Part shown: positions 12,231 to 25,413 of the stretch, one piece after another
Numbering within the stretch: position 1 is the stretch's first letter
How the letters are laid out: every line of letters starts with the position of its first letter
DNA from: a virus
UHGV virus genome: UHGV-0207024
Strand: one strand, 5' to 3'
Length of the DNA stretch: 29,997 nucleotides
The notes under the pieces: model-generated
The model's database searches: none
The model's input: the letters and a program-made list of their open reading frames with translations, nothing else
Told to the model about the DNA's origin: nothing
Program-made: the position numbers and the translations under genes

Positions 12231-12747
12231 CGGTGAGGCGATACAGCTAAAAAATATGCGCGTGACTGTTTCACAGCAGTTTCAGGACAAAGACCAGTCC
12301 GGCCAGACCAGCGCGACGTCCAAATCAGAGCAGGGCGCAAAGGGTAAAGAGCTGCGCATTAGTGGAGAGATCCCCTTTAAAAACCCGGAGATCCTTAAAC
12401 GCATCTTTGAGCTGGCCAGCGCCACAGACAGCGGCGGTAAGCGCCAGAAATACCGCGTTGCGCATGAGGTTGCCAGGGCGGTGAATTTTCGTGAAGCCAC
12501 ATTTACAGGCACGCTTGATGCCCCGCAGCAGGATGGGAAAATGGCCTGGCTGGTGACATTCACGCTGGCGGAACATATCAGCGTGCAGGAAAAGCGGGAA
12601 GCGAGGGCGACGGGCAAAACAACGGCGAAAAAACAGACTGCCGGAAGCGCCGGGAAGTCAGGCGGTCAGAATGCCGGTGAGGATGAAGAAAAACTGACGT
12701 GGTTTGAGCGTAAAGTGCTGAAGCCCGTAAATGATGCGCTGGGGTAA
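12202..12747 (+). CDS. putative tail tube initiator / P2 gpU-like protein (181 aa)
   Basis: Good RBS (AAAGGGAA); N-terminal segment LRISGEIPFKNPEILKRIFELASATDSGG loosely resembles gpU ITLSGVLYPELTGGG...LAVELMAEEG; Lys/Gln-rich disordered C-terminus; positioned before the hub-spike gene. Confidence 0.35.
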   Translation: MTSIPTLALNGEAIQLKNMRVTVSQQFQDKDQSGQTSATSKSEQGAKGKELRISGEIPFKNPEILKRIFELASATDSGGKRQKYRVAHEVARAVNFREATFTGTLDAPQQDGKMAWLVTFTLAEHISVQEKREARATGKTTAKKQTAGSAGKSGGQNAGEDEEKLTWFERKVLKPVNDALG

Positions 12748-14450
12748 TGATGAAACCAGTAAAACGCCTTTACCTTTCAACGGATGAAGTGCATCTGACG
12801 GATGCAAGTCTGGTTCTGGAGTTGAGCAGTTGCGGACGAGGTTTTATTACTGCTGAGACGACAAACGATTACACAGGGAAACTGGTGCGGCTGGATGTGG
12901 GGTATTCCGATCTGCTTTTGCGCTGGTTTACCGGCTATGTGGAACGCTCACAACCTGCCGAAAATGGTTTTCAGCGTCTGTTTGTACGCGAGCTGGTCGG
13001 CATATTTGAGAGAATGTGGCCATGTTCGTTTCAGCACCCAACTTTACGCCAGATCGCCAGCTGGCTGGAGGAAAACAGCGGAATTGCTGTCAGCGTGTCG
13101 GATGCCCTTTACAGCGATAAGCCGATCCCGCACTTCACCCATAACGGCACGGGCTATCAGCTGCTGAATAATCTGGGTAGGGCGTTCAGTATCCCGGATT
13201 ACATCTGGTATCAGTTGCCTGATGGTTCCCTGTATGTGGGCGGCGCGGAAAAAGCGATGTTTGCTGATCGCCCGGTAGATATCCCGGCAGAGTTCAGTCA
13301 GGGGGCTGCGGGCGGTAATTCCATGACGCTGCCAGTGATCCAGAGTCTGCGTCCGGGTGTGGAGCTGAACGGGGAACGCGTGACCAAAGTTCATCTGACA
13401 AATGACACAATGGCCATCACCTGGACACCCAGAAACCGCGCAACAGGTCAGCCATTACAGAAAACACCGGCACAGCGTCAGATTGAAAGCCATTACCCGG
13501 AACTGGCTTCCGGGCTGCATCTGCCAAAACAGGCCAGAGTGGTGGCACACAGTGAAGCCGTGAAAAGCGGTAATTTTGCCGATCCGTTCCGGCCGCGCTA
13601 TGCCGTGGATGTGCAACTGCTTGACGCAGACGGAAACCCGGACAACAAGACGCCGGTTTATTCTGCTGTGCCGCTGCCGGTTCCTATGGCCGGTAATGAT
13701 TCGGGCATGTTTCAGTTTCCGCCTGAAGGGACGCTGGTTGAAGTGGCATTTACTGGCGGGAGGCCGGATAAGCCTTTCATCCGGCAGACGCTACCGGATG
13801 GAACCAGTTTGCCCGATGTTAAGCCTGGCGAACAATTACAGCAGCAGCGCGAGGAAGTGTCACAGCGGGTTACTCAGGCTGGCGACTGGGTACGGCAGAC
13901 CGATCAGACTATCAGTGAAAAATCGATGGTGCGAAGCGTTAAAGCTGATACAGAACAGCGCGAACTGGTCAGCCGTGAAACCACGGTAAAGGCCACGGAT
14001 AAAACCACGGTACTGGGAACCGCCACGCTGCTGGCTGGGGCTATCCAGCAGGTAAGCGCCGGTGATTACAGCCAGGCAGTAAAAGGTAACAGGCTGGCCA
14101 GTATTGAAGGGAACGAAGAAACGGACATAACAGGACGGCAGTCCACCAAAGTGGGCGGAGCCGTGGATATTGAAGTGGGGGAATCCCTGACAGAAAAAAT
14201 TGCCGCACTGCGTAAATCTGTAGCCGCTGGCGGTCAGCAGGTTATGGGGGCAACCGTTCATATTGGCAGTGAGAGTATCAACGCCCTGACCATGATGCTG
14301 GACACCATTGATTTACTGGCAGAACTGGCGCAGCAATGTGCGAGCCATTCGCACCCCAGTGTTGGTACGCCAACCAATGCCGGAGCATTTACCCAGACGG
14401 CAGCGAAAGCCGGACAGACCCGCAGCAAATATCAGAGCATAATCGCCTGA
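12747..14450 (+). CDS. baseplate hub-spike fusion protein (gp27/gpD-like N-terminal region + gp5/P2 gpV-like OB-fold and apex)
   Basis: Motif PPEGTLVEVAFTGGRPDKPFI matches the gpV/VgrG OB-fold signature (P..G..V.V.F..GD...P.V); C-terminal SHSHPSVGTP resembles the His-rich metal-binding spike apex; last gene of the tail operon, followed by a terminator. Confidence 0.55.
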   Translation: MMKPVKRLYLSTDEVHLTDASLVLELSSCGRGFITAETTNDYTGKLVRLDVGYSDLLLRWFTGYVERSQPAENGFQRLFVRELVGIFERMWPCSFQHPTLRQIASWLEENSGIAVSVSDALYSDKPIPHFTHNGTGYQLLNNLGRAFSIPDYIWYQLPDGSLYVGGAEKAMFADRPVDIPAEFSQGAAGGNSMTLPVIQSLRPGVELNGERVTKVHLTNDTMAITWTPRNRATGQPLQKTPAQRQIESHYPELASGLHLPKQARVVAHSEAVKSGNFADPFRPRYAVDVQLLDADGNPDNKTPVYSAVPLPVPMAGNDSGMFQFPPEGTLVEVAFTGGRPDKPFIRQTLPDGTSLPDVKPGEQLQQQREEVSQRVTQAGDWVRQTDQTISEKSMVRSVKADTEQRELVSRETTVKATDKTTVLGTATLLAGAIQQVSAGDYSQAVKGNRLASIEGNEETDITGRQSTKVGGAVDIEVGESLTEKIAALRKSVAAGGQQVMGATVHIGSESINALTMMLDTIDLLAELAQQCASHSHPSVGTPTNAGAFTQTAAKAGQTRSKYQSIIA

Positions 14451-14461
14451 CCATCCCCATC

Positions 14462-14488
14462 AGCCCGCGCATATTGCGGGCTTTTTTT
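14462..14488 (+). terminator. rho-independent terminator ending the late tail operon
   Basis: Hairpin AGCCCGC-gcatatt-GCGGGCT followed by TTTTTTT. Confidence 0.7.
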
Positions 14489-14894
14489 GTACTCACTCTC
14501 AGGCTTCACCAGACGCATTCTAAGCGCCTCTTTTATCTGACCACTACCGCGCAACACCGTAAAAGGATCTGTGCTGTCACGTTACGCTGGCGGCGCTACA
14601 CGCTGACAAAATAAATCTTTCGCAGACAAAAACGGCACTACACCGCACCCGCCTGCGGTTTTTGGATCGTAGAAATTTTTCAGTTTTATTTTTCTTCAAA
14701 TCAGACCGCCAGACCGCGCCAGCGCTGGCGGATTGCGGGAAACACTAAACTGAAAACGTTGAAAAGAATTTCACTTTTTTTCAGTAAAAAGGATCTGTAG
14801 TGGATCTGATGAAATTGTTAACTTACAGATAAATAAGGGAAAAATAAATTTTATGTGGCTTTTGGGGATCTAATTACTCCGTGTGCTATAGACA

Positions 14895-14970: not shown

Positions 14971-15468
14971 TTAAAGTTTTCCTTCCGAAATATTGAAATC
15001 CACGACTTCTTTGGTTTTCAGATCCAGTGTACAGGCATAGGTCATGTTCATTTTTGCGTTGAAGCCGTTTGTAAATTTGACCTTATCACCGATGAAGGTT
15101 AACTGGTTCTTTTTGCTGTCAATCCTGCCATGAGAAAACATTGGATCTAACATTCCGTCAGTCCATTCAAATTCATACTTCGCGGAACGCTCAACCAATG
15201 GTTTGCATTTGGTCACAGCATCTACCAGGTTCTTATCGAAGTTGCATTGGGTGTCAGTGTTAGAACATACCTTTGGAGTTTCAGCTGCTTTTTCATCGTC
15301 ACCACTACCAACGAAATACATGATTATTCCCACAATAATAATCAGTATCAGACAGCCGCTAAGTTTCTGCTTAGCACCAAAGCCTGGATCTTTTACGCCA
15401 CAGTGTGGGCAAGTCTTTGCAGAGGTTGATACTTCTTTTTTACATTCTTTGCATTTAGTGAGTGCCAT
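14971..15468 (-). CDS. moron/cargo protein: N-terminal zinc ribbon (CxxC-x13-CxxC), single TM helix, Cys-containing extracytoplasmic domain (165 aa)
   Basis: Translation MALTKCKECKK...CPHCG; TM LSGCLILIIIVGIIMYFVG; strong RBS (AAGGAA then 5 nt spacer); locally AT-rich compared with flanks; bracketed by its own terminators; sits between the tail operon and attP. Confidence 0.7.
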   Translation of the reverse strand: MALTKCKECKKEVSTSAKTCPHCGVKDPGFGAKQKLSGCLILIIIVGIIMYFVGSGDDEKAAETPKVCSNTDTQCNFDKNLVDAVTKCKPLVERSAKYEFEWTDGMLDPMFSHGRIDSKKNQLTFIGDKVKFTNGFNAKMNMTYACTLDLKTKEVVDFNISEGKL

Positions 15469-15730: not shown

Positions 15731-16792
15731 TTATTGGATGTTTGAGTTCTGAGGGGACAGAAAAGGGGCATTTTGTCCCAAAGGGTTTAGCGTTATAGCT
15801 TCCTGCAAATGGCTTGGAGCGAAATGCGCGTAACGCATGGTCATTTTAATGTCAGTGTGTCCCAGTATCTCTTTTAAAACCAGAATGTTCCCGCCGTTCA
15901 TCATAAAGTGACTGGCGAAAGTGTGTCGTAACACATGTGACAATTGGCCATCAGGTAAGTCGAGTTCCGCACGCTCTACTGCTTTGCGAAAGGCCGAATA
16001 GCAGGGCGTAAAAAAACGCCCTGGTTTTTCTGGTTTCGGCAAAGCGTCATAAAAGTCCTGGCTGATTGGAACAGTTCTGTTCCTGTTCCCTTTAGTTTTA
16101 AAAAAGCTGACTTTTAGGTTTCTGATTTGCTTAGTCGTTAATGATTCTGCTTCATCCCAGCGAGCGCCGGTTATCAGGCATAAACATGCAACCCAGTAAG
16201 TGCTGGCGTTTCGACTTTTCGAACATTCGGATAACAATCGTTCGATTTCATCATGTTCCAAATAAGCCAGTTCAGCTTCCTCAGACTTAAAGGGGCGAAC
16301 GTTAGACAGGGGGTTTTCAGATTTCCAATGTCCTAAGCGCTTAAGCTCATTAAACACGGCACGAAAATAGGCCAGTTCTAAATTCATGGTTCTGGGCGCG
16401 ACTTGTTTTACACGCGCTGTTCTGGATATTTCACCGGATAAACGTTTTTTGCGATAAAGCGAAAACATTGTGGCATCAAATTCATGCGCCAGCGGATCAC
16501 CCATGCTTTGACACGCAAATTCCATTGCGCCTTTACGTTTTTCGCCATCGTCAAGCGTCACACCATGTTCATCGAACCATTGGTTTACTAAGTCGCGTAG
16601 CTTTCTCCGATCCTCTTTACCGTCAAGCCAGGGCTTTACATGGACGTTTTCCATAATGTGATTTTGGTAGGCTAGCGCCTCGCCTTTGGTGGAGAACGTC
16701 CTGCGGATGCGTTTGCTGGCTTTTCCCTGGGGTTTTCCTTCCGGGTAAAAGTCCAGCAACCATTTCCCGTCCGGCTGTTTTCTGATACCCAT
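15731..16792 (-). CDS. int: tyrosine integrase (P2/186 Int family)
   Basis: C-terminal catalytic region HVLRHTFASHFMMNGGNILVLKEILGHTDIKMTMRYAHFAPSHLQEAITLNPL closely parallels P2 Int; adjacent to attP. Confidence 0.95.
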   Translation of the reverse strand: MGIRKQPDGKWLLDFYPEGKPQGKASKRIRRTFSTKGEALAYQNHIMENVHVKPWLDGKEDRRKLRDLVNQWFDEHGVTLDDGEKRKGAMEFACQSMGDPLAHEFDATMFSLYRKKRLSGEISRTARVKQVAPRTMNLELAYFRAVFNELKRLGHWKSENPLSNVRPFKSEEAELAYLEHDEIERLLSECSKSRNASTYWVACLCLITGARWDEAESLTTKQIRNLKVSFFKTKGNRNRTVPISQDFYDALPKPEKPGRFFTPCYSAFRKAVERAELDLPDGQLSHVLRHTFASHFMMNGGNILVLKEILGHTDIKMTMRYAHFAPSHLQEAITLNPLGQNAPFLSPQNSNIQ

Positions 16793-17379
16793 TATGCGTT
16801 TGTTATCGTCATGACCACGCGGCCGATAATTTCGATATCTTCCAGTCCACAGTCAAAAGCCATGCCGACACCACTGACGCGCACCTTTTTTACCGGGATG
16901 CGTGTTAGCGTTCTGATGCCGGTTTTTCCTTCGATATTCACCAACCATTCGCCATCAAAAACCTCGGAAAATTTCTGGTCTAGGATGTACTGCGCTTTTT
17001 CATCTAGCACGCAGAAAGGTGCTGTGGGGAGTGGTGCTCCTGCCCTGAAAAAAACTTTATCGAACATAGCGTAACCAGAGTCATAGAGCTGGCCATCAAC
17101 TAGTTTTTTACGAGGAAATTTCATGATGTCTAACTGATCATCATCGAATTTCTTCCCCTGGCCAGTAGATAGCCACTCAAGAGACGCCCCGGTTTCTGCT
17201 ACGCAGCGAACTACCATATCAGCCGGGAATATTCCCCGTTTAAATCTTGCGGAAAGGCTACTTGAGGCCATATCGAAATGTTCCGCAAGCTGTAGCTTTG
17301 AAGTGAAGCCGTAAGCCTCTACTACTCGATCAAGCACGTCGCTGCTGTGCCCTATCTGCTCAAAAGGGAATTTGCTCAT
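16792..17379 (-). CDS. cI: CI-type immunity repressor (195 aa; phage 186 CI-like HTH + C-terminal oligomerisation domain)
   Basis: N-terminal motif VLDRVVEAYGFTSKLQLAEHFDMASSSLSARFKRG resembles 186 CI; overlaps the int start (int ATG at 16792-16790); divergent from the apl/cII operon. Confidence 0.7.
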   Translation of the reverse strand: MSKFPFEQIGHSSDVLDRVVEAYGFTSKLQLAEHFDMASSSLSARFKRGIFPADMVVRCVAETGASLEWLSTGQGKKFDDDQLDIMKFPRKKLVDGQLYDSGYAMFDKVFFRAGAPLPTAPFCVLDEKAQYILDQKFSEVFDGEWLVNIEGKTGIRTLTRIPVKKVRVSGVGMAFDCGLEDIEIIGRVVMTITNA

Positions 17380-17513: not shown

Positions 17514-17735
17514 ATGCGTCCTAACATTACAATCACCATCCCAGCCCCATATCTACCACTTAAAGAGTGGTGCAAATTAACGAATACAGCTGAAAGCACA
17601 GCCCGTGACATGATCCGGGATGGCCGTCTGCCTATTCGTGGCAAAGGAGAAATGCCTAAAGGCCGTGTGGAAATAAACATGGCCGCTCTGACCGTTGAAG
17701 CGTTAAGCGAATGCAATATTTCGCTTAACGCGTAA
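17514..17735 (+). CDS. Apl/Cox-like excisionase-repressor (AlpA/Xis-type HTH, 73 aa)
   Basis: First gene of the rightward early operon opposite cI; motif LKEWCKLTNTAESTARDMIRDGRLP resembles the AlpA/Xis DNA-binding domain. Confidence 0.55.
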   Translation: MRPNITITIPAPYLPLKEWCKLTNTAESTARDMIRDGRLPIRGKGEMPKGRVEINMAALTVEALSECNISLNA

Positions 17736-17765: not shown

Positions 17766-18269
17766 ATGTTTGATTACCAGACCTCTAAACATGCTCACTT
17801 TGATGCGGCTTGCCGAGCATTTGCAATTGATCACAATCTTGAAGATGTGGCCGCTGCCGTTGGTATGAGGCCGCAGATCCTGCGCAACAAACTGAACCCA
17901 GCGCAACCGCACCGCCTAACCTGTGATGAGCTTTTGGCTATCACGGATTACACCGAAGATGCGCGTTTACTTGATGGGATGTTAGGTCAGATTAACTGCC
18001 TTCCATCCGTGCCGGTGAACAATGCCACTGAAGCCAATATGCAACTGTGTGCGCTTAGCGCCACTGCGTGTGTGGGCGCGATTGCTGGGGAAGCCGTATC
18101 AACTGGCCATATGACCGCCGCCCGCCGTACACAAATTCTTGATCGCGCCCGCGATGCTATCCGTAGCCTTTCTGTGCTGGCTTATACCGTTGAAACCCGC
18201 ATTCACTCTGCGCCGGTTCTGGCCGCTGCGGTGGATCTGGTGACAACCAGCGCCACAGGCATGATGTGA
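17766..18269 (+). CDS. cII: CII-like lysogeny establishment activator (phage 186 CII homologue, 167 aa)
   Basis: MFDYQTSKHAHFDAACRAFA...LRNKLNPAQPHRLT...LDGMLGQINCLP parallels 186 CII (MFDFQVSKHPHYDEACRAFA...LRNKLNPEQPH...); same size class (169 aa). Confidence 0.7.
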   Translation: MFDYQTSKHAHFDAACRAFAIDHNLEDVAAAVGMRPQILRNKLNPAQPHRLTCDELLAITDYTEDARLLDGMLGQINCLPSVPVNNATEANMQLCALSATACVGAIAGEAVSTGHMTAARRTQILDRARDAIRSLSVLAYTVETRIHSAPVLAAAVDLVTTSATGMM

Positions 18270-21502: not shown

Positions 21503-21711
21503 TGATGGAAATCCTGATCGGCGTTTATGCCTTATTTGCCTGTATTACCTTTGTTTTTCTCTTATGGGATGAACAGCAGGATGACTTCAGTCATGATGTT
21601 GATGACTTTTTGCTGATCACTTTAAGTGCAGTTTTCTGGCTACCACTGGTCGCGGCCGTGCTGGTGGCATTCCTGATTGATTTCTGGAAAAAATGGGTTA
21701 ATCGTGGCTGA
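21499..21711 (+). CDS. small two-TM membrane protein (70 aa)
   Basis: Two hydrophobic helices (ILIGVYALFACITFVFLLW; LITLSAVFWLPLVAAVLVAFLIDFW); ATGA overlap with the Dam stop; stops immediately before the replication gene. Confidence 0.45.
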   Translation: MMMEILIGVYALFACITFVFLLWDEQQDDFSHDVDDFLLITLSAVFWLPLVAAVLVAFLIDFWKKWVNRG

Positions 21712-21712
21712 T

Positions 21713-23734
21713 ATGCTGGATATTGGCCAACATCACGCCGTCGATGCCTGGCGGCGTGAAACCTTTGCGCCGGGAACGCCAGCAGATGCCACCATCACAG
21801 AGCGCCGTTTATGGGCTGTTAATCCAGAGGATTATGAATGGCGCTCCCAGTACCTGCATGAGATACCCGACTGGTTAGCCGGGTATTTTGGCAACCGTTA
21901 TGAAAAGCTGCTGGCTGGTCGTGACGGGCGTCGCCGTGCCAATACATTTCTGCGTCAGACTATCGGCGGGAATGTATTGCCACGTCTGCGCAAAGTGGCC
22001 GCACGTTACAAGCTGGCCGCTGATGCACTTGATCTTCCTTTTGGTAAGTCGCTGGAGCGACTGCCATCACTTGACCGTCCAGATCTTAAAAAACTGTCTG
22101 GACAGATATCCGGCTGGATCTCCCAGTCACTGTATGACTTCACCGATCAGTTTATGGGCAGCACTGAAGATGCCGCAGAGCTGCGCCGCCGTACGCTGGA
22201 GTCTTATCGCCATTTGTGCGCCTGTTCACTGATGCTGAATAATCAGCCTCCGTACTGGGCGGAACATGAAGCCAGTGACGGCCAACTGGAAACACGCAAG
22301 GCTGAATCCGGCATCCTGCGCATGATGGCGCCAGAGTGGTGGTATCAGCGCCTTAAGCGTGCGCGTGATGTACAGCGTGAGCATCTGGCTATAGCTGTGG
22401 GGCAGGTACAGAAAGCAGCCAGTGCTTATGTGTCCCGTAAAACTCTGGGCGAATGGATAGAACAGAAAAAGCGCAACGCTGAGTTTTTTAAAAAATTCGA
22501 CCTGATAAATGAGCATGGGGATCGCGTAGCGCTGGCTGATATGGTTCATGGTAGCGTGGCTAATCCAGCGATACGTCGCTGTGAATTGATGGTTCGTATG
22601 CGCGGATTTGAAGATATTGCCAATGACGAACGGCTGGCCGGTGAGTTTTATACCATCACCGCACCATCACGTTTCCATGCTGTGCACAGTAAAGGCGGCT
22701 TTGTTTCTCAATGGAATGGATACACGCCGCAGGATACCCAGCGCTATCTATGTGGTGTATGGGCAAAAGCCCGCGCAGCGCTCTCCCGCGCGGGTATCCA
22801 TGTCTTTGGGTTTCGGGTTGTAGAGCCTCACCATGATGGGACACCCCACTGGCATATGTTGCTTTTTATGCGCCCACAGGATGTGGACACGGTACGCGAT
22901 ATTCTTTGCTATCACGCACGTATCACTGATTCTGAAGAACTACAAACCCCCCACGCGCTTAAGGCGCGTTTTCATGTTGAGCCTATCGATCCTAAAAAGG
23001 GGTCGGCCACTGGCTATATCGCTAAATACATATCAAAGAATATTGATGGCTTTTCGCTCGATGGCGAAAAAGATGATGAGACCGGGGAAAACCTGCGCGA
23101 TATGGCTAAAGCCGTTTCAGCATGGGCATCACGCTGGCGCATTAGACAGTTCCAGCAGATAGGCGGTGCGCCGGTGACGGTATGGCGTGAGCTGCGCCGT
23201 CTGCCAGGTGATGGACAGATTTTACCAACTGAAGATATGGATAACGTGCGTTTTGCAGCAGACGTGGGCGACTGGCGAGCTTATACCGAGTGCCAGGGGG
23301 GTGCGTTTGTTATGCGTAAGGATCTGACCGTCCGCCTGGCGTATGAGGTAACTGAGCAGGGTAACGAATACGCAGAGGACGTGCAGCGCGTACAGGGCAT
23401 CTACTCGCCACATATTCCAGATTCTGAGGTATGTACGCGTCTGGTGAAGTGGCAGAAGGTTACGAAGTTGGCCGAAGCGTCAGCGGAGGCGGGTTTTGAC
23501 CTTGACCTTAAACACCCTTGGAGTTCTGTCAATAACTGTACTGAGGGGGGAACCCGCAGACGGTTAAAACTGGAGTTACGCAGTCGTGGTTTTGATGGTT
23601 CTGATGAGGAAATCACCATACTGACGCGGGGGAGTGGTTTAAGGTTTGGCCATACAGCCCTGATTTATCGTAATGGCAGGTTGCAGGAAGCGCGAAAAGA
23701 GCCAGTCCAGGAGTTATGGCCGGGATGGGTATAG
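21713..23734 (+). CDS. A: rolling-circle replication initiation protein (P2/186 gpA family, HUH endonuclease)
   Basis: HUH motif region GTPHWHMLLF and catalytic Tyr region GYIAKYISKNIDG; about 674 aa from ATG 21713 (the ORF is open from TTG 21677). Confidence 0.85.
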   Translation: MLDIGQHHAVDAWRRETFAPGTPADATITERRLWAVNPEDYEWRSQYLHEIPDWLAGYFGNRYEKLLAGRDGRRRANTFLRQTIGGNVLPRLRKVAARYKLAADALDLPFGKSLERLPSLDRPDLKKLSGQISGWISQSLYDFTDQFMGSTEDAAELRRRTLESYRHLCACSLMLNNQPPYWAEHEASDGQLETRKAESGILRMMAPEWWYQRLKRARDVQREHLAIAVGQVQKAASAYVSRKTLGEWIEQKKRNAEFFKKFDLINEHGDRVALADMVHGSVANPAIRRCELMVRMRGFEDIANDERLAGEFYTITAPSRFHAVHSKGGFVSQWNGYTPQDTQRYLCGVWAKARAALSRAGIHVFGFRVVEPHHDGTPHWHMLLFMRPQDVDTVRDILCYHARITDSEELQTPHALKARFHVEPIDPKKGSATGYIAKYISKNIDGFSLDGEKDDETGENLRDMAKAVSAWASRWRIRQFQQIGGAPVTVWRELRRLPGDGQILPTEDMDNVRFAADVGDWRAYTECQGGAFVMRKDLTVRLAYEVTEQGNEYAEDVQRVQGIYSPHIPDSEVCTRLVKWQKVTKLAEASAEAGFDLDLKHPWSSVNNCTEGGTRRRLKLELRSRGFDGSDEEITILTRGSGLRFGHTALIYRNGRLQEARKEPVQELWPGWV

Positions 23735-23812
23735 TGTTGTAAGTCTGTGAAACACCTTCTTTTTGTCGGTAGATAGCAGGAAATTAAATTTCACAATTTG
23801 TGCTTAAAGGTG

Positions 23813-23832
23813 TACTGTATGTATATCCAGTT
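23813..23832 (+). promoter_or_regulatory. LexA (SOS) box overlapping a putative -10 element
   Basis: TACTGTATGTATATCCAGTT matches the LexA consensus TACTGTATATATATACAGTA at 17 of 20 positions (CTGT-N8-CCAG); 23 bp upstream of the ATG at 23855; possible -35 TTGTGC at 23798-23803. Confidence 0.6.
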
Positions 23833-23854
23833 ATTTTATGTTTTTGGGGGCTAA

Positions 23855-24058
23855 ATGGATCTTTTGGAAGCGTCGGCACAGCTGGAGCGCATTGAGTTAT
23901 TGGCCAAAATTGCCCATGTTTACGAAAGTGACCAGAGAGAGAAAACGATCGCTTTGGCCTGGATTGGTGAAATCGCGGGAGAAATGCGGGAAATGGTCAG
24001 GAAAGAAGTGAAAAGCCCCCAGTCAGGGGGCTTAAGCGGCGGGTGTCGCTTTCAGTAG
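23855..24058 (+). CDS. small SOS-regulated protein, candidate Tum-like antirepressor (67 aa)
   Basis: Strong RBS (GGGGGctaaATG); LexA box in its promoter; located after gene A, as tum is in phage 186; no sequence motif support for function. Confidence 0.4.
   Translation: MDLLEASAQLERIELLAKIAHVYESDQREKTIALAWIGEIAGEMREMVRKEVKSPQSGGLSGGCRFQ
24014..24032 (-). terminator. terminator of the leftward P-Q-ogr transcript
   Basis: Minus strand: AGCCCCC-tgact-GGGGGCT followed by TTTTCACTTCTTT, immediately after the ogr-like stop. Confidence 0.5.
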
Positions 24059-24301
24059 GTCTAATGCCATCTGACGCTGATCGGGTGAAAGTGCACCCAG
24101 TATTTTTTGCACCATTGCATCACCCGTTTTAGCGCTGGGGCTGAGAGTGTGGGAGAACGTCAGATTCATGACAAACGTATGACCACACTCCACATCTGAA
24201 CAGGCGCAGTAAATATCGGCAATCTGTCGGTGTTTCCGGTTTGTTTTACGAATAACAGCCTTTGAGCCGCATTCCGGGCATTCGATTTTCAGAACTCGCA
24301 T
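24032..24301 (-). CDS. ogr: Ogr/Delta (186 B) family zinc-finger late transcription activator (about 89 aa from MRVLK)
   Basis: CPECGS-x19-CACSDVEC zinc-finger spacing is typical of Ogr/Delta/B; start ATG at 24301 with GGAG 8 nt upstream. The ORF is open to 24355, but that start would overlap the Q stop region. Confidence 0.7.
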   Translation of the reverse strand: MRVLKIECPECGSKAVIRKTNRKHRQIADIYCACSDVECGHTFVMNLTFSHTLSPSAKTGDAMVQKILGALSPDQRQMALDLLKATPAA

Positions 24302-24351
24302 ATTCCATGCTCCAGCTGTTAAATAATGCCTGGATTTTAGCCTTTTTCGTC

Positions 24352-25413
24352 TCATACCGCATCCTTATCTGTTGATTCTGCGTAACTTAAATCAAAGTTA
24401 AGGTGCAGTCTTTCCGGTATTTCGGGATCGTTGTTAACGGCCAGCATGAACCGGCGCTGAATGGGCGCAACTTCGCTTTTCTTGTAAATACGTTCAGCCT
24501 TTTCAACGTCGCCCAGTCCGGCAGTGTTCTGCGGAACGATTCCGGCAAGGCCAGCAGGAAAGCGGTGTGCATTCAGAATGTCCTGGGCGCTGATATTCTT
24601 GACGTTTGCAAACTCATCCTTTGCGGAAATATCACCCATTTCAATGAACTTGATAGCGTCACCGTCGCCACCAGGAATATTTACCAGAATGGTGGAGAAA
24701 TTGCCGATCCCTTTACTGTCGCGCAGCTGCTGTTCAATCTCTTCTTCCATTTCGTCCGTCATGCTGGGGTCGCGGGTGTAAAGAATACCGCCTGTGTGCG
24801 CACCGTTATGGTAATAGCGGCGCCGGAAAATGACTGCTTCACTGTTGAGTAACGCAGAATGCACACCGCCGATGTAATCCGGTAGCCCGTAGATGTGCTG
24901 TTGCGGGTCGTACATCTTAATGAAAATAATATCTTCCTGCGGCCATACCTCCGGTTCCCCTTCCTGTAATACCACGTAATCGCCAGGCTGATCCGTGGCA
25001 TTGTCCCTGACCTTCCGGCGACGGATATACAGTCCGGGGAGGGGTTCAAGTCCGATCACGTCTCCCCAGCCATTGCGGATTTTACCAATTGCGATATCAC
25101 CAAACGTTATATAGTCGAATGCTGCCGCCTCAAGCTGGTCATGAATCAGGCCACCTCCTTTGTAGTCGGAGATAATCATATTCTTGCGGGCGTGGATGAT
25201 GCCGCCATGCTGCCCGTTAAGGTTAATCAGCTGTGCCAGCGCCAGCCGGTCAATCGGTTGTGTGAAATGATCGGCGGCGTTGTCGTACCAGATATCACGG
25301 TAGTCTGTGCCGGTAGTCAGTACCGGTTCAGGCTTGCCGAATGTGATAATGCTCATTTTTTTGGCCTTATCGCCGCGCTGGTCGCGCTTAATGAAGCGTT
25401 TCTTTTTACTCAT
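24352..25413 (-). CDS. Q: portal protein (P2 gpQ family)
   Basis: 353 aa (P2 Q 344 aa); downstream of and translationally coupled (ATGA) to terminase large subunit P, in the leftward P-Q operon. Confidence 0.9.
   Translation of the reverse strand: MSKKKRFIKRDQRGDKAKKMSIITFGKPEPVLTTGTDYRDIWYDNAADHFTQPIDRLALAQLINLNGQHGGIIHARKNMIISDYKGGGLIHDQLEAAAFDYITFGDIAIGKIRNGWGDVIGLEPLPGLYIRRRKVRDNATDQPGDYVVLQEGEPEVWPQEDIIFIKMYDPQQHIYGLPDYIGGVHSALLNSEAVIFRRRYYHNGAHTGGILYTRDPSMTDEMEEEIEQQLRDSKGIGNFSTILVNIPGGDGDAIKFIEMGDISAKDEFANVKNISAQDILNAHRFPAGLAGIVPQNTAGLGDVEKAERIYKKSEVAPIQRRFMLAVNNDPEIPERLHLNFDLSYAESTDKDAV

Follow-up and report, generated by a model that had tools for sequence, protein, structure and literature searches.

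The locus described here lies in a phage of the P2/186 group (Peduoviridae), inside the 300 bp that separate the replication gene A from a convergent gene for an Ogr/Delta-type zinc-finger late activator. Within this short interval sit a match to the LexA operator (23813-23832), the hexamers of a likely promoter, a Shine-Dalgarno sequence, an ORF for a protein of 67 aa (23855-24058, plus strand) and, inside the 3′ part of that ORF, an intrinsic terminator of the transcript that approaches from the opposite side (24000-24033, minus strand). We use the term window for the whole stretch of DNA that was analyzed, which is 29,997 bp long.

Genomic setting of the locus

The early region of the window holds a 186-like gene set. 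The integrase gene (15731-16792, minus strand) is followed by the gene for a 195-aa CI immunity repressor of the 186 type (16792-17379, minus strand), which shares 43% identity with 186 CI (E 1e-45) and is assigned to Phage_CI_repr and Phage_CI_C by Pfam. Beyond it come a 73-aa ORF of the size of Apl or Cox (17514-17735), CII (17766-18269), genes for an exonuclease, an ASCH protein and a Dam methylase and, after these, the replication gene A (685 aa, 21677-23734, plus strand; Pfam Phage_GPA, E 3e-106). The gene that converges on the locus (24032-24355, minus strand; Pfam Ogr_Delta, E 9e-20) is called as either 89 or 107 aa in relatives, and it belongs to a leftward operon of terminase, portal and Ogr/Delta genes that runs from 27197 down to 24032, with P2-type capsid genes on the same side. 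The morphogenetic genes of phages of the window type are HP1-like and not Fels-2-like.

Several further observations concern the genome as a whole. The window is a circular permutation of the entire ~30-kb phage genome, in which the junction of A, the 67-aa ORF, the ogr-like gene and the portal gene is unbroken (23734-24352). The last tail gene (12747-14450) adjoins the integrase gene, so the attP side is intact. The cos site was not located, as the cohesive-end sequence of the P2/186 type, GGCGNGGCGGGGAAAGCA, had no match with three or fewer mismatches in the whole window. CI and int abut with no gene in between; the corresponding interval in nine relatives (L024 and L027-L034) holds variable cargo, including bPH_3/SHOCT proteins, WYL-domain proteins and proteins of 290-300 aa without known function. 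The stretch from the tail genes to int encodes a 165-aa protein (14971-15468, minus strand) with an N-terminal zinc-ribbon (UPF0547/Zn_ribbon_3) and a hydrophobic segment, which is probably cargo.

The position of the late activator sets this lineage apart from the two classical phages: P2 and 186 carry their ogr-type gene beside int, whereas the window lineage carries it beside the portal gene. This Ogr/Delta gene, the last of the leftward terminase-portal operon, is the only one in the window, and the ORF that follows the tail genes (14336-14614) gave no Ogr_Delta match in Pfam.

A LexA box overlaps the likely promoter of the 67-aa gene

The sequence TACTGTATGTATATCCAGTT at 23813-23832 agrees with the LexA consensus TACTGTATATATATACAGTA at 17 of 20 positions, as an earlier note on this DNA had claimed, and it is the single site with three or fewer mismatches to that consensus in the 29,997-bp window. 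No such site arose in 100 dinucleotide-preserving shuffles, and a search of the window for CTGT-N8-ACAG returned no further site. The box has the palindromic CTG-N10-CAG structure and the AT-rich spacer of an SOS box. Its conserved half-sites show one departure, with CCAG in place of ACAG, which leaves both CTG and CAG intact. As ACAG is found in 16 of the 17 relatives surveyed by script, the operator of the window may be the weaker one.

Upstream of the ORF, the promoter hexamers TTCACA (-35; 23790-23795, plus strand) and TACTGT (-10; 23813-23818, plus strand) are separated by 17 nt, and both are identical to those annotated for promoter p95 of phage 186. The 186 record (NC_001317) describes p95 by these same two hexamers and places the start of a putative LexA site at the -10. 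The same is seen in the window, where TACTGT forms the left half of the box, and the overlap between box and likely -10 that the earlier note had proposed is therefore real at the level of the letters. From its sequence, the window would thus have what characterizes a Tum module, namely a promoter with a LexA operator over its -10 region. A generic sigma-70 scan misses this promoter because TACTGT matches TATAAT at just three of its six bases, and the same outcome is to be expected for p95. Downstream of the box, the Shine-Dalgarno sequence GGGGG (23845-23849, plus strand) lies five bases upstream of an ATG, so the description of the ORF as well initiated also held up; relatives have either GGAGG or GGGGG at this position.

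Box, promoter and gene order are conserved across genera

Our survey of the box covered 17 related loci that were processed by script and two phage records that were added later. In every one of the 17 scripted loci the best LexA-like site retains CTG-N10-CAG and precedes the start codon by 14-25 nt, and the box is also visible in both added records. In an alignment of 12 sequences, mean column identity reaches 0.88 in the box and 0.86 in the -35 region, against 0.60 in the intergenic DNA that precedes them and 0.69 in the stretch from the box to the ribosome-binding site. Conservation reaches 100% in the CTGT columns and 96% in the right half of the box, while (T)TTCACA is kept as the -35 in most relatives.

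The related loci also share their gene order, in which A is followed after ~120 nt by an ORF of 66-68 aa and then by the convergent Ogr_Delta gene, the portal gene and the terminase gene. Two isolated phages have the same layout, Escherichia phage ESSI2_ev040 (Quadragintavirus; box TACTGTGTTTATATACAGTT) and Yersinia phage vB_YenM_324 (Tresduoquattuorvirus; box TACTGTATAAACATACAGTA), and the conservation of box, spacing and ORF therefore extends across genera, from Citrobacter, Salmonella, Klebsiella and Enterobacter to Yersinia. In Salmonella enterica subsp. diarizonae (L017, L018 and L031) a 346-aa DUF2806 gene has been inserted ~100 nt after the ORF and before the ogr-like gene, and these relatives still keep both box and ORF. 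Sequence and phylogenetic footprinting together make it very likely that the 67-aa gene is under LexA control.

The annotation of the two phage records is uneven. The ORF is unannotated in the vB_YenM_324 record (L036, 6893-7102), and the start annotated in ESSI2_ev040 (L023, 2291-2551) falls inside the LexA box, from which it follows that the true start is probably a GTG ~45 nt downstream.

The 67-aa protein is related to the N-terminal part of Tum

The ORF begins 120 nt after the stop codon of the Phage_GPA-type gene A, directly downstream of it, and the proposal that its position is equivalent to that of 186 tum is borne out. The intervening segment, 23735-23854, is the sole non-coding DNA from gene A to the portal gene. 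A search of 5.8 billion proteins returned 108 homologues of the 67-aa protein, all labelled as hypothetical, from Citrobacter, Salmonella, Escherichia, Enterobacter, Klebsiella, Kluyvera, Pluralibacter, Lelliottia and Raoultella. Conservation is strong over residues 1-41, and pairwise Nei-Gojobori estimates of dN/dS over codons 1-45 range from 0.08 to 0.24, with synonymous sites often saturated. Judging from this pattern of substitution, the ORF is a real gene under purifying selection.

Neither Pfam (best E 0.2) nor NCBIfam gave a reliable match for the protein. Among the PHROGs it falls into phrog_698 (E 3e-23), with weaker matches to phrog_8554 and phrog_1993. A further weak match (E 0.21) concerns phrog_189, a family to which full-length Tum belongs, and is limited to its N-terminal columns 8-43, outside the DinI part. 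AlphaFold2 confidently models the protein as a hairpin of two helices (3-21 and 27-53; mean pLDDT 82.7), while residues 57-61 and 63-67 have pLDDT values below 50. We therefore describe residues 1-53 as a conserved Tum N-terminal domain with a predicted helical-hairpin fold, and residues 54-67 as a tail predicted with low confidence. Searched against the PDB, the model found no match at E ≤ 0.001 and generic helical hairpins alone, and a sequence search of the PDB with the 67-aa protein gave nothing significant.

The earlier note had failed to recognize the protein, which in fact matches both the N-terminal part of Tum and the short Tum proteins of Fels-2 and E. coli HS. The stretch related to the N-terminal part of 186 Tum spans residues 4-43; of these, residues 4-41 align with residues 5-42 of 186 Tum at 34% identity (BLASTP, E 9e-6), and hhalign links the window family to 87 distinct N-terminal segments of the 186 type with a probability of 87.8% (E 3e-6). 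The 62-aa proteins STM2728 of Fels-2 and ECHS_RS04495 of E. coli HS are 31% identical to the window protein over 48 aa (E 1e-8). A profile of the window family, run against 1.84 billion representative sequences, retrieved 67 clusters, mostly of proteins of 50-100 aa, with the Fels-2-type proteins recovered at library-wide E values of about 2e-5 to 8e-4. The PHROG assignments form a similar network, as ECHS_RS04495 belongs to phrog_698 (E 6e-38), PSP3 TumA to phrog_1993 (E 3e-32), and the first 70 residues of 186 Tum match phrog_1993, phrog_8554 and phrog_698. PSP3 TumA itself shows no BLASTP similarity to the window protein, so that this link is indirect and passes through the cross-matches of phrog_1993 and phrog_8554.

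The comparison with Tum and Tum72 that the earlier note had suggested thus had a divided outcome: the N-terminal part of Tum is similar, and Tum72, the DinI-like C-terminal part, shows no similarity to the window protein. The ORF likewise has no DinI match in Pfam or NCBIfam, and neither the C-terminal part of Tum nor DinI gave a significant tblastn match anywhere in the window. The locus therefore has no member of the DinI family (PF06183), either fused to the 67-aa protein or adjacent to it, and the homology is confined to the N-terminal, antirepressor-specific part of Tum. Although similarity to the characterized Tum proteins amounts to about 31-34% over 38-48 residues, the tests applied here place the 67-aa protein within the Tum family by sequence, where it belongs as a short, TumA-like form.

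Comparison with known Tum modules

Phage 186 provides one close parallel. Its Tum (146 aa, expressed from p95) resembles the window gene in its position after A, its promoter hexamers, the LexA site over the -10, its N-terminal ~40 residues and the type of CI that accompanies it. It differs in that its C-terminal domain is a fused DinI-like one, also made alone as Tum72, which modulates induction, and in that orf97 and cos come next. The window protein corresponds to the N-terminal domain alone. According to the 186 record (NC_001317), full-length Tum "inhibits CI DNA binding", whereas in-frame products that lack its N-terminal part do no more than "modulate" induction. Lemire et al. 2011 (PMC3121763) describe Tum as an antirepressor joined to a half that resembles DinI.

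In Fels-2 and PSP3 the two halves are split by a stop codon, and in PSP3 antirepressor activity is carried by the upstream gene (PMC3121763). The PSP3 record gives this gene, tumA (60 aa), the note "UV induction of prophage" and describes tumB as resembling DinI. PSP3 resembles the window in having a short gene with a LexA box (TACTGTATAAATATACAGTA) in front, and in PSP3 this gene alone carries the antirepressor function; PSP3 keeps tumB, whereas the window lineage is without it.

The tum gene of the E. coli HS prophage DuoHS and the near-identical STM2728 of Fels-2 also encode, like the window gene, a short stand-alone protein after gene A behind one or more LexA boxes. Deletion of the HS gene, ECHS_RS04495, abolished mitomycin C lysis of this P2-like prophage in the Phollow study (2025, PMC12055606), and lexA(Ind-) likewise abolished mitomycin C-induced lysis (PMC12055606). 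Since the HS protein falls into the same PHROG as the window ORF, a short Tum of that PHROG is experimentally required for SOS induction. In the genome record (NC_009800.1) the same gene appears as a 62-aa "hypothetical protein" between the replication endonuclease gene and a DinI-like gene. Indeed, a DinI-like gene directly follows tum in both HS and Fels-2 and none does so in the window, where the gene, unlike its HS and Fels-2 counterparts, converges on an ogr-like activator beside the portal gene and takes its tail from the ogr terminator and 3′ codons. The CI of Fels-2 is 30% identical to that of the window.

Short Tum proteins are accordingly not new, the PSP3 tumA gene, the split tum of Fels-2 and the E. 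coli HS gene all having been on record before the window gene, and the order of A followed by tum is common to 186, PSP3, Fels-2, E. coli HS and the window. The window locus differs from the known modules in layout, not in principle. A wider parallel, one of logic, can be drawn with GfoA, GftA and FsoA of the Gifsy and Fels-1 phages and with AntC of N15, which are LexA-controlled small antirepressors with documented action on several repressors (PMC3121763). In these systems LexA silences the gene for a small protein, which in turn inactivates a non-cleavable repressor, but the backgrounds are lambdoid or N15 and the repressor families are unrelated.

The CI repressor as the presumed target

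The nature of CI offers a plausible reason for the presence of an antirepressor. The window CI has no S24 peptidase (autocleavage) domain in Pfam, which reports Phage_CI_repr and Phage_CI_C alone, and the phage thus combines the Tum-like gene with a cognate 186-type CI that lacks a self-cleavage domain. A CI of this kind would be unable to answer RecA directly, and an SOS-inducible phage that relies on it would need an antirepressor. By analogy with 186, we infer that the 67-aa protein binds the window CI.

The relationship between antirepressor and repressor alleles is less straightforward. In a set of 11 genomes, identical 67-aa proteins are paired with CI alleles that are 63-78% identical, no allele-specific co-variation that would link the protein to CI is seen, and the antirepressor alleles track the neighboring genes A and Q more than they track CI. 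Over larger distances (186, Fels-2, ESSI2_ev040 and the Yersinia phage) antirepressor and CI diverge together. One C-terminal stretch of CI, IRTLTRIP.KKVRVSGVGMAFDC, hardly varies among these alleles and might, as a matter of speculation, serve the antirepressor as a common docking surface.

Identical proteins beside divergent CI alleles would also fit a gene that, while regulated by LexA, has some other role at the time of the SOS response, acting on RecA or LexA, cell division, replication or host benefit rather than inactivating CI. The standing of the family as one of unknown function in PHROGs, with no reliable Pfam or NCBIfam match, leaves room for such a role, as does the presence in the 186 SOS operon of further genes of unclear role, such as orf97 (186 record). 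We nevertheless regard this alternative as distinctly unlikely. The homology is specific to the segment of Tum that is needed for anti-CI activity and does not involve the DinI-like, RecA-binding part; the closest tested relative in the same PHROG, HS tum, is required for prophage induction; and the absence of an autocleavage domain from CI makes an antirepressor the expected partner if the phage is SOS-inducible.

The C-terminal tail overlaps a leftward terminator

The 3′ end of the ORF overlaps the terminator of the leftward ogr-like/portal/terminase transcript, as the earlier note had observed. The terminator consists of a stem-loop at 24013-24033 followed by a U-run, and folds with an 8-bp GC-rich stem (z = -3.85 for the whole fragment). 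As the U-run is present on the minus strand only, we read the hairpin as a terminator of leftward transcription. It is conserved in relatives as AAAA-CCCCC-loop-GGGGG, with a compensatory stem change in one of them (L029). The two genes themselves also overlap, the final 8-9 codons of the ogr-like gene lying across the last codons of the tumA-like ORF.

This overlap bears on the interpretation of the protein's C-terminus. Distant family members, with N-terminal domains down to about 30% identity, retain the sequence K.PQ.GG.SGGG..FQ, and PQ.GG.SGGG..FQ was considered as a functional protein motif. We rejected this candidate, since the DNA alignment traces the segment to the leftward terminator hairpin and, behind it, the final codons of the ogr-like gene on the opposite strand. 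The DNA that ESSI2 phages have in common with the window begins only at 24011, at the hairpin, and the S. diarizonae relatives with the DUF2806 insertion have a different C-terminal tail. Encoded by hairpin and ogr codons, replaced in S. diarizonae and disordered in the model, the tail of ~14 residues is most likely a by-product of gene packing.

For the rightward transcript, no conserved terminator was found, and on the plus strand no U-run follows the hairpin. A terminator scan yielded a single candidate, at 24083-24098, which is not conserved in relatives and was rejected. With an ORF that enters a convergent late-regulator gene from its 3′ end and no conserved signal to stop the transcript, the main output of the SOS promoter might be antisense transcription into the ogr-like/portal/terminase operon, with the small ORF a secondary matter. 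This seems very improbable to us, given the strong purifying selection on the protein, the conserved ribosome-binding site and start codon, and the homology to a protein of known function; moreover, box and ORF persist in S. diarizonae even though the DUF2806 gene stands between the ORF and the ogr-like gene. That both the LexA-like sequence and the ORF arose by chance and have no function is barely credible, as neither the CCAG departure from the consensus nor the weak -10 can be set against a box with 0 sites expected by chance, the conservation of box, spacing and ORF across genera and dN/dS values far below 1.

Discussion

The proposal that this locus is a 186-style, LexA-controlled, Tum-like module has fared well, with a p95-like promoter, homology to the N-terminal part of Tum and a 186-type CI all pointing to it in the sequence. 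We think it probable that a 186-like temperate phage uses this locus as its SOS-induction module, and that the whole chain from LexA to the inactivation of CI operates. The LexA steps of this model are based on sequence and footprinting, while the later ones we infer from homology to the Tum proteins of 186, HS, Fels-2 and PSP3 and from the type of CI. Among the points that weigh against this reading, the DinI-like partner that every characterized Tum module possesses is missing here and the -10 agrees poorly with TATAAT.

In this model, host LexA bound at 23813-23832 in a lysogen would cover the -10 and the likely transcription start, keeping the p95-like promoter silent. Damage to DNA would activate RecA and lead to the self-cleavage of LexA, whereupon the promoter would fire and the 67-aa helical-hairpin protein would be made. 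This protein would bind the 186-type CI, which cannot cleave itself, and CI would leave its operators, resulting in expression of the early lytic operon (the Apl-like protein, CII and the replication genes) and induction of the prophage. The window lineage would accomplish this with the antirepressor half of Tum alone and no DinI partner.

Because identical antirepressors occur alongside CI alleles of 63-78% identity, one antirepressor could potentially cross-induce heteroimmune relatives. It is conceivable, if unlikely, that a DinI-less Tum does so by recognizing the invariant C-terminal part of CI, and that rightward antisense readthrough adds a link, at the level of RNA, between the SOS response and the timing of late gene expression.

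Assuming that the SOS-induction module operates as proposed, we predict that DNA-damaging agents, among them antibiotics such as quinolones, can induce this group of prophages by way of LexA and the small antirepressor. Its members are widespread and occur in Citrobacter, Salmonella, Klebsiella, Enterobacter, E. coli and Yersinia. The existence of a DinI-less form further supports the view that a helical hairpin of roughly 50 residues is the whole antirepressor unit, which would make the protein a practical minimal model for structural studies of the inactivation of 186-type CI proteins.

With the family listed as hypothetical in the databases, the main value of the finding lies in annotation. 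PHROGs 698, 8554 and 1993 carry the label "unknown function", and in RefSeq the proteins are either "hypothetical protein" or uncalled, a gap that the relationship to Tum now closes. About 40% of the RefSeq E. coli matches listed lack an annotation of the Tum-like ORF. Several of the relatives are separate contigs of 30-31 kb, which would fit excised or replicating phage DNA. Among 5,426 complete E. coli genomes, the module of the window type is present in 30 and the split tum-dinI module of the Fels-2/HS type in 1,125.
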